From a virus (Duplodnaviria > Heunggongvirae > Uroviricota > Caudoviricetes): a stretch of DNA of 21,542 bases. A program made the position numbers and the translations under genes. Of this stretch, positions 2,051 through 13,761 are shown in pieces. Location of the stretch: IMG/VR virus record IMGVR_UViG_2563366943_000015, one strand, 5' to 3'. The notes under the pieces are model-generated. The model was not told the origin of the DNA and did not search any database. It saw only the letters and a list, made by a program, of their open reading frames with translations. The stretch's first letter is position 1. Every line of letters starts with the position of its first letter.

Positions 2051-4021
2051 TCATGCCGCGATGTCCGCGTTGTTCACTTCCACCTTCACACTGTCAATCA
2101 GCAGCGTATATGTCGCCGCCTTTGATATGCCTGTCAGTTGCAGTTTGTCCGCCGCCCCTGATGCCGGAGATTTCACCAGTGTGAACGGCGTCCCCCGTTT
2201 CTCATCCAGTACCGGCGTCACCTGAATGCTGTTGTTTCCGGCAAACTCAAAAGCCAGTGTGTGCCATCCGTTATCAAAGACCCCGAACGTATCCAGCTTC
2301 GCATTCGGCTTCTTGTGGTGCATCGCGTTCAGGTTCGTCGCATCCGTCTGCAGGAAGAAGGACATCAGCATGTCGTTGCCTTCCTCTGCCAGCGTCACTC
2401 CCTCCGGCAGGGACGACAACTGCCAGTAAATGCCCAGGGCAAACTGATTCGGCACCAGTGAACCCGGCAACTTAAACCGTACGCTCACACGTCCCCCCTT
2501 CTTCAGTAACTCCACTCCCTGTCCGGCTGCATCATGCTCCAGAAACCAGATGTGGTTTTCCGGTTTATTCAGTTGCAGGGCCTTACCTCCCGTAGCCCCC
2601 GCATCACTGACCACCGCTTCAGCAATGTTTTTGTTAACATTGTCTCCGCTCGCCGGTTTGTGATAATAGCGCCAGCCCTGTGATGCCAGGTCTTCGCCGG
2701 ACGCCAGCAGACTCATCAGGGTTCGGTTACTGACCGGGGCTTCCGGCTCTCTCTCCGTACCTTCACCGGAAGGTCCGGTGGGCTTCACCGTATCAGGCTG
2801 TTTTCCGGTAATGAATTCAGCGTTTCTCCCGGCATGCACAAGAATCGCCGTTGCCAGACGGTCGGAAATAATCCCACGACGTGCCCATGATCCAAAATGC
2901 GTTTTACGGTCGGCCGTCGTCCAGGTTTTGGCGTCCGTTCGACCACCGGCTCCGTAATACCCAATATCCGCAACATCCGGATCTTCTGACGGCTCGTTGG
3001 TACCCACATTTCGCCCGTTTTCATCCGTCATAAACGGCACAAAGAAGATTTTTTTTGCGGATTTCGTCTTGTATGCACCATACACCGCATCGTATTGCGA
3101 AGAATAAGTCTGCTTCCAGTAGTAGGTCGTGTCGCCACAAATCCAGGGAACCGATGACGGAGAGCCCCCGAGACACTGACCTCCGAATTCCGACAGGTCA
3201 GAACGATATTTTTCCACCATGGAATCAAACAGCCCCGGCTGAGTGGCGTATGCACCCTGTTTCAAATCAAACTCGCCCTGCATCCAGACCACTGCAAGCA
3301 GAATATTTTTAGGGTTGGCCTTCAGTGCGGCCTGAGTACGGGCAAGCAGGTCCTTGTACAGTGGCTTATCTACACCCCAGCGTGCCGAGGTCTCGCTTGC
3401 GCCGGTGGATTCGCTGAAGGTACCTTCATCGCCCGCCAAAAATGCAGAACCACCACGGCAGCAAGGAACCAGAAGAATACCGGCATTCGCCGGAATAAAC
3501 GGCAACAATTTCTTCGCGATATGTAATCCCTGCCCCACGCATCCATACTGAGCTGCGCTGGCTTTCGGGTGTGAAAACTTACTCAAATCCTGAACATCAT
3601 GCAGGCAGTGGTCCGCAGGAATAATGTCATTGTAGTTACAGGACGCACCACCCGGCGTGACAGTGCTGCGACGCGCCAGCTGTTTAATACGCGGGTCCGG
3701 ACGGTCATATGTCTCCGGCAGCGGAAGCCCTTCACCATACGCCATACCGTTTGACTGCCCGGCCAGGGCAACAACAAAGTAATACTCCGGGTTGCTGGTG
3801 GTGCTGATAACTGCGCCTTCTCCATCCGACGGCTTCACCACCACAGGTGTGGTGACATTACCTTCTGCGACAATCGCCTGAATAAGTGCTGCGCCATCAT
3901 CCGTATACGAAGAAAACGGCCCGCCGTATGGTTGCCATCCTTCACGAATTTTTTGAGCAAGCGCATCCGCAAGGTCTGACGGCGATGCCGCCCTGACCAC
4001 GTCATAGTGTTTAAATGCCAT
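2051..4021 (-). CDS. Prophage NanS-p-like 9-O-acetyl sialic acid esterase (DUF1737 N-terminus plus DUF303/SGNH-type esterase), 656 aa
   Basis: GQSN block (FVVALAGQSNGMAYGE) typical of the sialate O-acetylesterase family; size and position downstream of Q as in Stx-phage nanS-p; RBS GGGAGG 4 nt before the ATG at 4021. Confidence 0.75.
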   Translation of the reverse strand: MAFKHYDVVRAASPSDLADALAQKIREGWQPYGGPFSSYTDDGAALIQAIVAEGNVTTPVVVKPSDGEGAVISTTSNPEYYFVVALAGQSNGMAYGEGLPLPETYDRPDPRIKQLARRSTVTPGGASCNYNDIIPADHCLHDVQDLSKFSHPKASAAQYGCVGQGLHIAKKLLPFIPANAGILLVPCCRGGSAFLAGDEGTFSESTGASETSARWGVDKPLYKDLLARTQAALKANPKNILLAVVWMQGEFDLKQGAYATQPGLFDSMVEKYRSDLSEFGGQCLGGSPSSVPWICGDTTYYWKQTYSSQYDAVYGAYKTKSAKKIFFVPFMTDENGRNVGTNEPSEDPDVADIGYYGAGGRTDAKTWTTADRKTHFGSWARRGIISDRLATAILVHAGRNAEFITGKQPDTVKPTGPSGEGTEREPEAPVSNRTLMSLLASGEDLASQGWRYYHKPASGDNVNKNIAEAVVSDAGATGGKALQLNKPENHIWFLEHDAAGQGVELLKKGGRVSVRFKLPGSLVPNQFALGIYWQLSSLPEGVTLAEEGNDMLMSFFLQTDATNLNAMHHKKPNAKLDTFGVFDNGWHTLAFEFAGNNSIQVTPVLDEKRGTPFTLVKSPASGAADKLQLTGISKAATYTLLIDSVKVEVNNADIAA

Positions 4022-4204
4022 GAATCCTCCCGGCCGGGATAATATTGTGAGTAAAATAAGGAGCGGGCTGAAGTCCGGAAGTTACAGGACAATGGCAGAA
4101 GAGAGACGACAGCCCGCAATTCGAAAAAGACCGCGCAGTTGCGCAGCCTTATGAATTCTGGTTAAAATCCATTCGATTATAAAAATGTATATCTCATGCT
4201 GTTT

Positions 4205-4228
4205 CCCGAACCCACTCGGGCTTTTTTT
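4205..4228 (+). terminator. Hairpin plus T7 run, plus-strand intrinsic terminator-like
   Basis: cccga-acccac-tcggg followed by ttttttt. No obvious plus-strand gene upstream. Confidence 0.3.
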
Positions 4229-4582
4229 GCCCACAAGAAAGCCCCTCCGGAGAGGGGCTAAAGCCGCGTATCTGTATCATCATGCACATGGTGCCGGGTG
4301 CCTCCCGGTAAGTTCAGCCCGGTGCCACTAAACCCGCGTCATTCTCGTTTTGATAATCAGAGATTATACCGTCACCAGTCGCCCCTCCGCTCAGGGGGAT
4401 TCACCATGCCAGTTTCTTTTAACAAACTCCCCGCAAACCAGACAACAGTCAACCGCCTGAATTGTGAGGTATTTAAAAATTTCTCCAGATAACTGATACC
4501 CGGCTAACAGTCTGGCGTTTTCTTTTTCAGCAACGGGAAAGCAACAACCACCACACCCACCAGCCGCCAATTTACCACAAAT

Positions 4583-10961: not shown

Positions 10962-11708
10962 TCACTTCGCAATTCCTGGCTGGACGACATTCGGACGCCA
11001 GCTCTCCCAGTTAAAATTCACCCATCGCCCGCCGTTCATGGTCATGCGATCCATAATCCTCTCGCCGAGCAATGTTTTCATGGCCTCATAGTTCAGGTTT
11101 GTCAGCATCCCCACGCTGCGCATCGACGCTGTCCGGCGATCAACAATCTGGTGCAGCACCACCTGCTCGTTTTTTGTCTCGCGCTGAATGCCAATTTCAT
11201 CAAGAACCAGCAGATCCACTTCGCACAGCTCCCGCAAAAATTTTTCGCCTGACTGCCCGTCGTCATAGCTGGCGTGCAGGGCGCTCATAACATCAGCCAC
11301 GGTAACCACAATCACTGTCTGACCGTCTTTCAGCAGGCGATTCCCGATAGCTGCCGCTAAGTGATTCTTCCCGGTACCAGGTTTTCCGCTGAACGCAAAA
11401 TTTGTACACCCGGTCATCAGTTCATCGGTGATGGATTTCGCCTGACTTAACGCGTATCGCTGGCCGTCGTTCTGCACCTGGTAATTCGCAAACGAGCATT
11501 TACGGTGCAACGGCTGGATGCCAGAGCGATTCAGAATTTTTTCCACCCGCAACTGACGATTCAGGCGGTTGATCTCCTCGCAACGTTTCTGGCCTTCAGC
11601 AAGTTGCCACTCACGCCACTCCGCAACCGTTCTGAATGGGGCGGTTACATGTGGTGGGGTCAGTCTGCGGATACGCTCCAGAACGCCGCCTGTCGCAATA
11701 TTTTTCAT
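10962..11708 (-). CDS. DnaC-like helicase loader / replication protein (YdaV-like), 248 aa
   Basis: Walker [16 protein letters not shown] and Walker B LLVLDEIG; position after the O-like gene. Confidence 0.85.
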
Positions 11709-11714
11709 GGTCTG

Positions 11715-12503
11715 TTACCCCCTGAAGCCTGGCGGGATCGCACTGTCCGGCAACGAGACGGTGTTAACCTGTCGGAGCAACGTCTCAGGCCGAACACCTT
11801 TCGGTGCGAACAAGCCCTGGTATTCATTGGCGATGCTGTGTCGAATCACCTGCTCAGGTGTAAAACCCTGCTGACGGAATTTTTCCAGTTCCCGTATCGC
11901 CCCGTTAGCGCCCTGCTCCGTTCGAATCGGTTTTCGCAATGCCTGCCTGAACTGAACCCACTCATGCCAGAGTGTTTCCGGCAACCAGTCAGGCAGCTCG
12001 ATAGCCTCCGGCTCGAATTTTTTAGACGCTCGTTTTTGGCGAGGGGGATTTAGGGGGAGATCAGTATTTATATCTTCCTCTTCCTCTTCCTCTGGTAACG
12101 CTTTTTGATCCGTTTGTGTAACGCTGGCAGCGTTACCCTTTCGTTTCAGTTCGCGTATTTTTGTAACTCGCTCGTTTGTAACCGCCCGTTTTTTTGAGCT
12201 TTTTCCGTTATGACGTTCAAAGTTAGGTAGAGAAAGCCCAACGTCATTTTCGACCAGCCATCCAACCTGAATTAACGCATCAGCAAAACCAGCCATAAAA
12301 GTGATGCGATCTATTGCACTTTTTGTAACGCCGCGAGCGTTACAATCTGCATTACCGTCTATCATTTGTTGATCCGCCCATGCCCAGAAGCGAATAACCT
12401 TCCCTAATGCGGCATCTGGATCAATATTCAGAATCTCAGCAAGCCTGAATATTTCCGGCTTATCCGGCGTAATAACCTCGAGCTTTATCCAGTTTGAAGC
12501 CAT
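11715..12503 (-). CDS. Replication initiator O-like protein (YdaU-like), 262 aa
   Basis: Position downstream of the Cro/CII-like genes and upstream of the DnaC-like gene; RBS AAGGTGA; poly-Glu linker; contains palindromic repeats (see repeat features). Confidence 0.65.
   Translation of the reverse strand: MASNWIKLEVITPDKPEIFRLAEILNIDPDAALGKVIRFWAWADQQMIDGNADCNARGVTKSAIDRITFMAGFADALIQVGWLVENDVGLSLPNFERHNGKSSKKRAVTNERVTKIRELKRKGNAASVTQTDQKALPEEEEEEDINTDLPLNPPRQKRASKKFEPEAIELPDWLPETLWHEWVQFRQALRKPIRTEQGANGAIRELEKFRQQGFTPEQVIRHSIANEYQGLFAPKGVRPETLLRQVNTVSLPDSAIPPGFRG
12118..12136. repeat. 19-bp palindrome GTAACGC-TGGCA-GCGTTAC (copy 1, inside the O-like gene)
   Basis: Perfect 7-bp inverted arms; extra half-sites GTAACGC at 12096..12102 and TGTAAC at 12162..12167 and 12177..12182. 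Confidence 0.7.
12325..12343. repeat. 19-bp palindrome GTAACGC-CGCGA-GCGTTAC (copy 2, inside the O-like gene)
   Basis: Perfect 7-bp inverted arms. Confidence 0.7.
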
Positions 12504-12516
12504 TTGTTTTCACCTT

Positions 12517-12535
12517 GTAACGCTCGCGTCGTTAC
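12517..12535. repeat. 19-bp palindrome GTAACGC-TCGCG-TCGTTAC (copy 3, abutting the O-like gene RBS)
   Basis: One mismatch in the right arm; directly upstream of the RBS at 12509..12516. Confidence 0.65.
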
Positions 12536-12580: not shown

Positions 12581-13006
12581 TCAATGCACTACGACAGAAT
12601 CGCCGGGCGACCCACCACCGCTGAAATGTGCTTTCCGGTAAACGGCCTGGACTGCATCATCATGCGCATCAATTGCCGTACTCAACGCTTCCTGCGCCGC
12701 CAGTAATGCACGGCGTTCCAGGGTATCGAAGATGCAGAGTCGGTGACGCAGCTCGCGCGGAAGAATTGCCAGAACCGCAGGGATCAGTTTCTGAATTTTT
12801 TCCCTTTGCGCTTTCGTTTCACCTTTCAACCAACGGTGATAGATATTCTGCTGATTGTTCCAGTCCTTGCCTGGTATAAGGGGCAATTCGCCGCCCCCCC
12901 CCTGGCGCAGATATTCTTCAGTAATTGCGTTAGCGACCCACGCCTGCCCTTTTTCGGCTGCCAGGGCTAACAACACTGATTCGATGTGCTTATGCCTGAT
13001 TTTCAT
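12581..13006 (-). CDS. ydaT: YdaT-like protein (CII-like regulator, reported as toxic), 141 aa
   Basis: MKIRHKHIESVLLALAAEKGQAWVANAITEEYLRQGG... resembles Rac YdaT from memory; ATGA overlap with the Cro-like gene. Confidence 0.7.
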   Translation of the reverse strand: MKIRHKHIESVLLALAAEKGQAWVANAITEEYLRQGGGGELPLIPGKDWNNQQNIYHRWLKGETKAQREKIQKLIPAVLAILPRELRHRLCIFDTLERRALLAAQEALSTAIDAHDDAVQAVYRKAHFSGGGSPGDSVVVH

Positions 13007-13245: not shown

Positions 13246-13341
13246 TGAAAACCTCCGATGACAATTTTAAACACACCTTGTGTTATATGGTCAAGCTATT
13301 TTGTGTTTTATGTAAATCACGATTCGTGATACAAGGATGCA
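13246..13341. promoter_or_regulatory. Immunity-region operator/promoter segment (OR-like) between the Cro-like and repressor genes
   Basis: Two 15-bp palindromes: AACACAcctTGTGTT (13270..13284) and ATCACGattCGTGAT (13316..13330); minus-strand -35 TTGACC with a -10-like TTTAAA/TAAAAT element for the Cro-like gene. Confidence 0.6.
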
Positions 13342-13761
13342 ATGGAAAAAGAAAACGAAAAAATTGCCGCTAGTAGGCTCAATGACAAAATTGCAATGCG
13401 TCTTAAAGAGCGCAGGCAGAAGCTTGGTTTATCTCAAGGAAAACTTGCTGAAATCTGCGGATGGACGCAATCGCGTATAGGTAACTATGAGGCGGGCAGC
13501 AGAAATGTTGGAGTGCATGACGCTGTCATATTGGGAAAGGCACTTGGCATATCTCCTCCTGAGCTCCTCTTTGGAGAACAGGAATCTTCTGAATTGTGGT
13601 TAAATGAATCCCAACGAAAACTTCTTGAGTTGTTTAACCAGCTACCGGGCTCAGAACAACAACGAATGATTGAGCTATTTGAAGTCCGGCTAAAAGAAAT
13701 CGATGAGTATGTAGAAAAATATTTGAGAGGCAGGCTTAAAGATAATCCCCCACCGGAGTAA
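13342..13761 (+). CDS. racR: Prophage repressor, RacR-like, HTH (XRE), 139 aa
   Basis: N-terminal HTH LGLSQGKLAEICGWTQSRIGNYE; divergent arrangement with the Cro-like gene; no LexA-like peptidase motif seen. Confidence 0.7.
   Translation: MEKENEKIAASRLNDKIAMRLKERRQKLGLSQGKLAEICGWTQSRIGNYEAGSRNVGVHDAVILGKALGISPPELLFGEQESSELWLNESQRKLLELFNQLPGSEQQRMIELFEVRLKEIDEYVEKYLRGRLKDNPPPE

Follow-up and report, generated by a model that had tools for sequence, protein, structure and literature searches.

Half-site arrays in a prophage replication gene as a candidate lambda-style in-gene origin, probably bound by a widespread DnaT-like initiator family

The GTAACGC half-sites (core TAACG) found in and just upstream of a replication gene of a Rac-type prophage are probably bound by the N-terminal domain of the protein encoded by that gene, and would form a replication origin inside the gene of their own initiator. 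This is the best reading of three lines of evidence taken together: the linkage of the sites to the initiator, the constraint on synonymous codons within them and the co-variation of the half-sites with residue 113 of the protein. What is new here, judging from sequence comparison, is most likely a lambda-style in-gene origin built by an unrelated, very widespread and previously undescribed family that uses a different site grammar. No description of these sites, or of the origin, binding, unwinding or origin activity of the family, was found in the literature on oriJ, ydaU/ydaV, the motif, the replication units of Stx phages or DnaT-like prophage initiators.

The window, i.e. the whole 21,542-nucleotide stretch of DNA that was analysed, is a Rac-type lambdoid prophage. 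A racR/dicA-like repressor gene on the plus strand (13342-13761) is followed on the minus strand by a cro-like HTH gene, a ydaT/CII-like gene (12581..13006; Pfam YdaT_toxin, phrog_163), the initiator gene (11715..12503, 262 residues), a ydaV-like gene for a DnaC/IstB-type helicase loader immediately downstream of it (10962..11708; Pfam IstB_IS21, E = 1.6e-19) and ydaW, with recE further on. The loader is the presumed partner recruited by the initiator. The initiator module is present in 786 of 5,426 complete E. coli genomes (∼14%), where RefSeq labels the protein a 'hypothetical protein', and an exhaustive search with the N-domain returned 6,498 representatives at 50% identity, of which 4,062 have E ≤ 1e-10.

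The initiator comprises two domains, an N-domain for which there is no Pfam model and a DnaT-like C-domain. The N-domain (about residues 1–122) would be the DNA-binding part and looks winged-helix-like in the predicted model, where it is followed by a basic helix; a fold search with this domain gave generic winged-helix similarities only, a weak fold assignment. An acidic interdomain linker (EEEEEEDINTD) then leads into the C-domain (residues ∼170–262). The protein matches PHROG 2509 'replication initiation protein' (E = 2e-89) and phrog_6451 'primosomal protein' (E = 4.5e-39), and its C-terminal 90 residues match the C-domain of E. coli DnaT (primosomal protein I) in the PDB by phmmer (2ru8, E = 1.3e-4; 9zbt, E = 4.4e-4). 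DnaT itself differs in having no sequence-specific N-domain and in working in PriA-dependent restart, without a defined origin. Two relatives (L004 and L150) match the Pfam DnaT family PF17948, for which the window protein lies below the Pfam cutoff; no Pfam (E ≤ 0.01) or NCBIfam model was found for the window protein. The first-pass annotation had called the gene O-like, a name that homology does not bear out, as there is no detectable similarity to lambda O (hhalign probability 0.7%, BLASTP E > 1) and no match to Pfam Phage_rep_O at E ≤ 1 among 14 family members.

The same annotation had noted three copies of the 19-bp palindrome GTAACGC-N5-GCGTTAC, two within the coding sequence and one beside the ribosome-binding site, and all three are present as described. 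Those at 12118-12136 and 12325-12343 are perfect (0 mismatches), while the copy at 12517-12535 has one mismatch, at the innermost arm position, and is perfect in close relatives. The motif is enriched: against an expectation of 0.08 the window contains three copies, a number reached in none of 100 dinucleotide-preserving shuffles, and a relaxed scan allowing three mismatches found only two weak, unrelated matches in the rest of the window. The start-to-start distances are 207 and 192 bp and the codon phase is identical for all three copies.

The upstream copy, referred to as cluster U (GTAACGCTCGCGTCGTTAC, 12517..12535), is non-coding, lies 13–31 nt 5′ of the initiator ATG and adjoins the AAGGTG Shine–Dalgarno sequence. 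It is a near-exact inverted version, spacer included, of the palindrome of cluster A (12325..12343), which spans codons 54–60 and encodes C-N-A-R-G-V-T. An extra, degenerate left half-site lies at 12349..12355 (minus strand; GTAATGC on the gene strand; codons 50–52, G-N-A). In the codon alignment, Serratia, Pantoea, Pectobacterium and some E. coli haplotypes have an intact GTAACGC here, and position 5 of this half-site is polymorphic in 12 of 62 E. coli-level haplotypes. Cluster B (12095..12182, codons 108–136), the candidate origin core, lies directly 5′ of the acidic linker. Its palindrome at 12118-12136 covers codons 123–129 (G-N-A-A-S-V-T) and is accompanied by an additional GCGTTAC on the gene strand at 12095-12101, encoding A-L-P with leucine as the rare TTA codon, and by two weaker GTTAC half-sites at 12163-12167 and 12178-12182. 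The half-sites previously reported as TGTAAC at 12162 and 12177 are thus in place, whereas the GTAACGC reported at 12096 starts at 12095.

The sites are under DNA-level selection. Both in-gene palindromes encode N-A-x-x-V-T, and the glycine at position 50, the asparagine and the threonine are nearly invariant, as would be expected if the repeats were a by-product of coding constraint on this peptide. Synonymous positions, however, are fixed within the motif, whereas like residues conserved in other parts of these genes, taken as controls, show synonymous sites well mixed at these distances (Fisher tests, in which related sequences are taken as independent). Glycine is GGT in 46/60 motif positions and 60/264 elsewhere (p = 7e-15), valine is GTT in 53/63 versus 42/143 (p = 1e-13) and asparagine is AAC in 53/53 versus 98/134 (p = 2e-6). 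Alanine is GCT in 35/46 versus 34/149 (p = 1.5e-10) and, at the positions where the half-site calls for it, GCG in 30/31 versus 43/149 (p = 5e-13); leucine is TTA in 38/40 versus 6/113 (p = 4e-27) and serine is AGY in 68/71 versus 90/294 (p = 1e-25). In the linker, arginine is AGA in 86/92 cases, compared with AGR in 45/310 elsewhere (p = 4e-46). Conservation of the sites in homologues goes far beyond what codon constraint would impose, with p values from 1e-6 to 1e-46 under the same assumption of independence.

The variable residues beside the sites are almost exclusively Gly, Ser or Cys, the amino acids with NGT or NGC codons, and among the 62 E. coli-level haplotypes the columns that vary number 6/49 in the arms and 10/15 in the spacers. 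The AlphaFold model places the residues encoded by the sites in loops or linkers of low confidence (cluster A encodes an N-domain loop with pLDDT < 50 for residues 50–56), and these poorly ordered loops tolerate four-residue 'xNAx' insertions, each of which adds one half-site. Cluster U carries the same sequence although it is non-coding. The synonymous tests and this non-coding copy together exclude coding constraint as the sole cause, and chance is opposed by the expectation of 0.08, so that an origin of the motif in coding constraint or chance is scarcely credible.

The layout of the sites is a property of the family. A scan of viral contigs with the single protein gave near-identical copies only, and an alignment-based scan with an N-domain profile was therefore run on species-representative genomes, yielding 71 loci from Enterobacterales, other Gamma- and Betaproteobacteria, Planctomycetota, Verrucomicrobiota, Acidobacteriota and others. 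Most of these have the palindrome at about +148/+160 from the ATG and again at +337..+391. Over ∼70 homologues, half-sites occupy two fixed in-gene positions, about +150 and +340 to +430, and these positions are kept down to ∼42% protein identity and over genome GC contents of 0.42 to 0.68. Cluster A is retained at +148/+151/+160 in homologues from at least five phyla, cluster B lies at the end of the N-domain, before the linker, in about 60 homologues, and the distance between the two, about 190–230 bp, is conserved. Half-site density over ∼65 loci is 8.8/kb in the region −70..+470 and 0.38/kb in the flanks. Downstream neighbours of distant homologues are genes for DnaB, DnaC-like, lambda-P-like or Toprim proteins.

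Comparison of these loci identifies the repeating unit as the 7-bp half-site, arranged in convergent arrays (>>..<<) with a period of 11–13 bp (codon-aligned DNA). Cluster B follows the grammar [GTAACGC]x1–4 at a 12-bp period, N5, GCGTTAC, 4–16 nt, GCGTTAC, in which each added direct GTAACGC contributes one more 'xNAx' tetrapeptide; the unpaired direct repeats with this 12-bp period are iteron-like in behaviour. The half-sites of cluster A follow the same convergent grammar. The spacing of about 200 bp, earlier regarded as unusual for iterons because the palindromes are not in tandem, ceases to be a puzzle, since half-sites are tandem inside the clusters and the inter-cluster distance is a conserved feature of the family. 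The architecture is not universal, because one Verrucomicrobia subgroup retains the protein with degenerate sites and no polypurine tract. Cluster U recurs in E. coli/Shigella, Serratia, Winslowiella and Pantoea within intergenic regions that are otherwise unrelated, is missing where the upstream gene abuts the initiator and is absent from most of the family; its distribution makes it a candidate for a lineage-specific auxiliary origin site or autoregulatory operator.

The last half-site of cluster B runs directly into a stretch of purines, usually (GAGAA)n, that encodes the E/K/R-rich interdomain linker. In homologues the (GAGAA)n directly follows this half-site and the purine fraction is 0.78, compared with 0.54. 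In the window the corresponding polypurine, A+T-rich tract is CAGAGGAAGAGGAAGAGGAAGATATAAATACTGAT on the gene strand (12060..12094, minus), which encodes EEEEEEDINTD. Its GC content of 0.375 is the lowest in the gene and its strand asymmetry the strongest (GC skew −0.6 on the plus strand). The composition and position of the tract make it a candidate DNA-unwinding element; in many homologues it is only moderately A+T-rich.

Which protein reads the sites can be addressed from the mosaicism of lambdoid phages. The CII-like product of ydaT had been considered a possible binder alongside the initiator; the gene lies nearby, and YdaT of CP-933P is reported to bind an inverted repeat (work cited within PMC11014345). 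Rac-SA53, however, shares ydaT at 92% nucleotide identity up to the stop codon, after which a different initiator follows and the palindrome is absent; K-12 Rac likewise has a similar ydaT and another initiator, without the palindrome. Conversely, in Enterobacter phage BUCT554 and a Klebsiella phage the similarity is confined to the N-terminal half of the initiator (∼71% nucleotide identity) and the upstream regions lack ydaT, yet both contain two perfect palindromes with different spacers. The mosaic junction coincides with the ydaT stop codon. Sites also occur without ydaT in L004, L005 and distant phyla, and ydaT without sites in L003 and L159. Because these exchanges keep the sites with the N-domain and not with ydaT, the sites belong to the N-domain cassette of the initiator, and the mosaic comparisons speak against YdaT as the binder.

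Binding by repressors of the cI/cro type from the immunity region is opposed by the unrelated motifs in the intergenic operator region (13246-13341), and the sites persist in homologues from other phyla whose regulatory surroundings differ. Taken as one class, YdaT and the immunity repressors are very improbable readers of the sites. The operator region has repeats of its own: a near-perfect palindrome, ATCACGA-T-TCGTGAT, lies at 13316-13331 just 5′ of the repressor start (13342), and TTGTGTT repeats are found in the divergent repressor/cro intergenic region. Both are probably immunity operators unrelated to the GTAACGC motif.

Evidence for the initiator as reader comes from lineages in which the recognition sequence has changed. 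In several of these, every half-site of a gene has made the same switch, to GTCACG, GTTACG or GTTGCG; where the new sequence is GTCACG, the two arms change in step, with AAC→CAC (Asn→His) on one and a synonymous GTT→GTG on the other. Position 3 of the half-site tracks residue 113, which lies in the predicted basic helix: A occurs with Val in 44/46 cases, C with Lys or Gln in 6/6, two lineages from outside the main C-type clade among them, and T with Met, a correlation that draws on few independent lineages and for which the Fisher tests treat kin sequences as independent. This co-variation argues for the initiator itself as the reader. In a reverse search, viral contigs that matched the cluster grammar alone contained an N-domain within 900 nt in 115/120 cases (six-frame translation). 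Of the original proposal that these are sites for an O-like initiator, the link to the initiator thus stands, through the mosaics, the synonymous constraint and the co-variation with residue 113, whereas the O-like assignment by homology does not.

The same symmetric changes could be read as preserving RNA or single-stranded DNA hairpins that act in mRNA stability, translation control, primosome assembly or priming. The palindromic arms are compatible with hairpins and their changes keep complementarity; RNA folding predicts stable hairpins for each palindrome (−9 to −16 kcal/mol, z as low as −3.2) and the C-domain resembles DnaT, a primosome protein. Yet the sequence itself is conserved across phyla beyond what pairing would require, G·U pairs (in the mRNA sense) account for 3/66 arm mismatches where ∼11 would be expected by chance, and many half-sites have no pairing partner, being direct repeats at the 12-bp period or single additional copies. 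An Rfam search gave no match, and the sense strand lacks a T-run terminator; a terminator scan gave one terminator-like match, on the antisense strand, which is no more than chance. Because of this conservation, the unpaired half-sites, the rarity of G·U and the empty Rfam search, a hairpin function is not favoured, and since half-site identity also co-varies with a protein residue, such a function appears improbable.

The putative initiator-bound origin resembles the lambda ori/O system in several respects. It lies inside the initiator gene at the junction between the N- and C-domains, its dyad-symmetric sites measure 18–19 bp, and a sense-strand polypurine, A-rich tract directly follows the iterons and encodes a charged linker, as in O, where the tract is asymmetric and melts readily. 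The helicase-loading gene is immediately downstream and the module is placed after cro/cII-type genes. The differences are that the proteins lack detectable homology, that the C-domain here is DnaT-like and that lambda has four tandem iterons in a single cluster, whereas here 7-bp half-sites form two conserved clusters plus an optional upstream one. By this analogy the role of cluster A is left unexplained.

The Rep proteins of iteron plasmids (RepA of pPS10, P1 and F, and π of R6K) offer a second comparison. In both, one recognition sequence occurs in direct as well as inverted orientation, and the DNA-binding domain here may be of the winged-helix type. The gene is immediately preceded by an inverted repeat, and in iteron plasmids such inverted repeats act as Rep operators for autorepression. 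This likeness, the position of cluster U directly 5′ of the ribosome-binding site and the lack of a counterpart of cluster A in the lambda ori would all suit an arrangement in which the sites are autoregulatory operators only, with the initiator or a partner repressing or roadblocking its own transcription and the true origin lying elsewhere. However, there is no promoter-like element between ydaT and the initiator gene, and cluster U is missing in most of the family while the in-gene clusters A and B are conserved. Operators alone would also leave unexplained the fusion of cluster B to the polypurine tract at the linker and the rare AGA and TTA codons kept across phyla, and the layout matches that of the lambda ori. 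An exclusively regulatory role is thus unlikely; autoregulation is plausible for cluster U and can coexist with an origin.

The following scheme for a working origin of this kind is inferred at each step, from initiator binding and looping to tract melting, origin activity and autoregulation. Derepression of the prophage would lead to synthesis of the initiator, whose N-domains would occupy the convergent arrays of half-sites along a single helical face. The clusters, ∼200 bp apart, may then be joined by protein–protein contacts, with the DNA wrapped or looped, and the polypurine tract adjoining cluster B would melt. The DnaT-like C-domain could engage the single-stranded DNA, the DnaC-type loader or both, leading to the loading of host DnaB. 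Cluster U, near the ribosome-binding site, would probably provide a third anchoring point and may roadblock read-through transcription, resulting in autoregulation.

Two extensions of this scheme are put forward tentatively. One is that (GAGAA)n serves as a single-strand recognition element for the DnaT-like C-domain, comparable to the DnaA-trios beside DnaA boxes, while residue 113 (V, K/Q or M) sets half-site position 3 (A, C or T). The other, which we likewise consider possible but doubtful, is that the loop and linker sequences of the initiator are dictated by its own binding sites and the adjacent (GAGAA)n, in a design that is nearly invariant from Enterobacterales to Planctomycetota.

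The overlap of codes in this gene is unusually clear, with the putative binding sites and unwinding element fixing synonymous codons (rare TTA and AGA) and even amino-acid choices, and the same replication module is found in thousands of prophage lineages across phyla. If the proposed reading is correct, it provides a sequence-level assignment of origin and initiator for a module carried by ∼14% of complete E. coli genomes, a compact motif with which prophage origins could be annotated and a potentially portable origin/initiator pair. It would further predict that synonymous recoding of the sites abolishes replication and that a V113K exchange retargets the initiator from GTAACG to GTCACG, in which case the recognition code at residue 113 would be simple and open to engineering.

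Other initiator alleles at this locus carry repeats of their own. YdaU of K-12 Rac occupies the same position (racR-ydaS-ydaT-ydaU-ydaV-ydaW) but has a DUF1376 N-domain (E = 2.7e-26), whereas the window initiator has no Pfam match to DUF1376 (PF07120); comparison of the N-domain profile with K-12 YdaU found no homology (hhalign probability 0.2%). The K-12 ydaU gene (3620-4477 in NC_000913.3 1417500-1424500) contains (C)AGATGTTCAA repeats at 3761-4078, about +141, +228 and +352..+450 relative to the ATG, together with an inverted copy, a two-cluster layout like that of the window initiator with a different repeat sequence. These repeats are a candidate for the sequence-level location of oriJ, which is known genetically (PMC3945230) and has no sequence-level annotation in NC_000913. 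The 'O' gene of phage PhiR5_2 (4395..3313, minus strand) represents a third initiator allele at the same locus, with GAAGGGGCTTC-type inverted repeats at 3937-3959 and 4189-4211 in clusters ∼250 bp apart; this allele suggests that an N-domain and its own sites may be swapped as a cassette.

Half-site arrays were also seen in unrelated genes. Two IMG/VR contigs (L261 8115-8145 and L271 6139-6169) show the three-half-site grammar inside a gene for a 929-residue zinc-finger/primase-like protein, where it encodes the peptide EGNATSVTAALL; there is no N-domain gene within 900 nt, and the match may reflect chance, coding convergence or an element that borrows this initiator. On a third IMG/VR contig, of high GC content (L161 528-570), an unrelated 131-residue open reading frame has four half-sites (> < < <) at its 5′ end, next to a gene for a small winged-helix-like protein, with no detectable N-domain homologue nearby.

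Two further features of the window were observed. At 12423-12453 the N-terminal coding region of the initiator contains a perfect inverted repeat with 9-bp arms (AATATTCAG / CTGAATATT) separated by 13 nt. The ydaT/CII-like gene contains nine consecutive C residues (G on the coding strand) at 12894-12902, a slippage-prone homopolymer that could switch this gene on and off.
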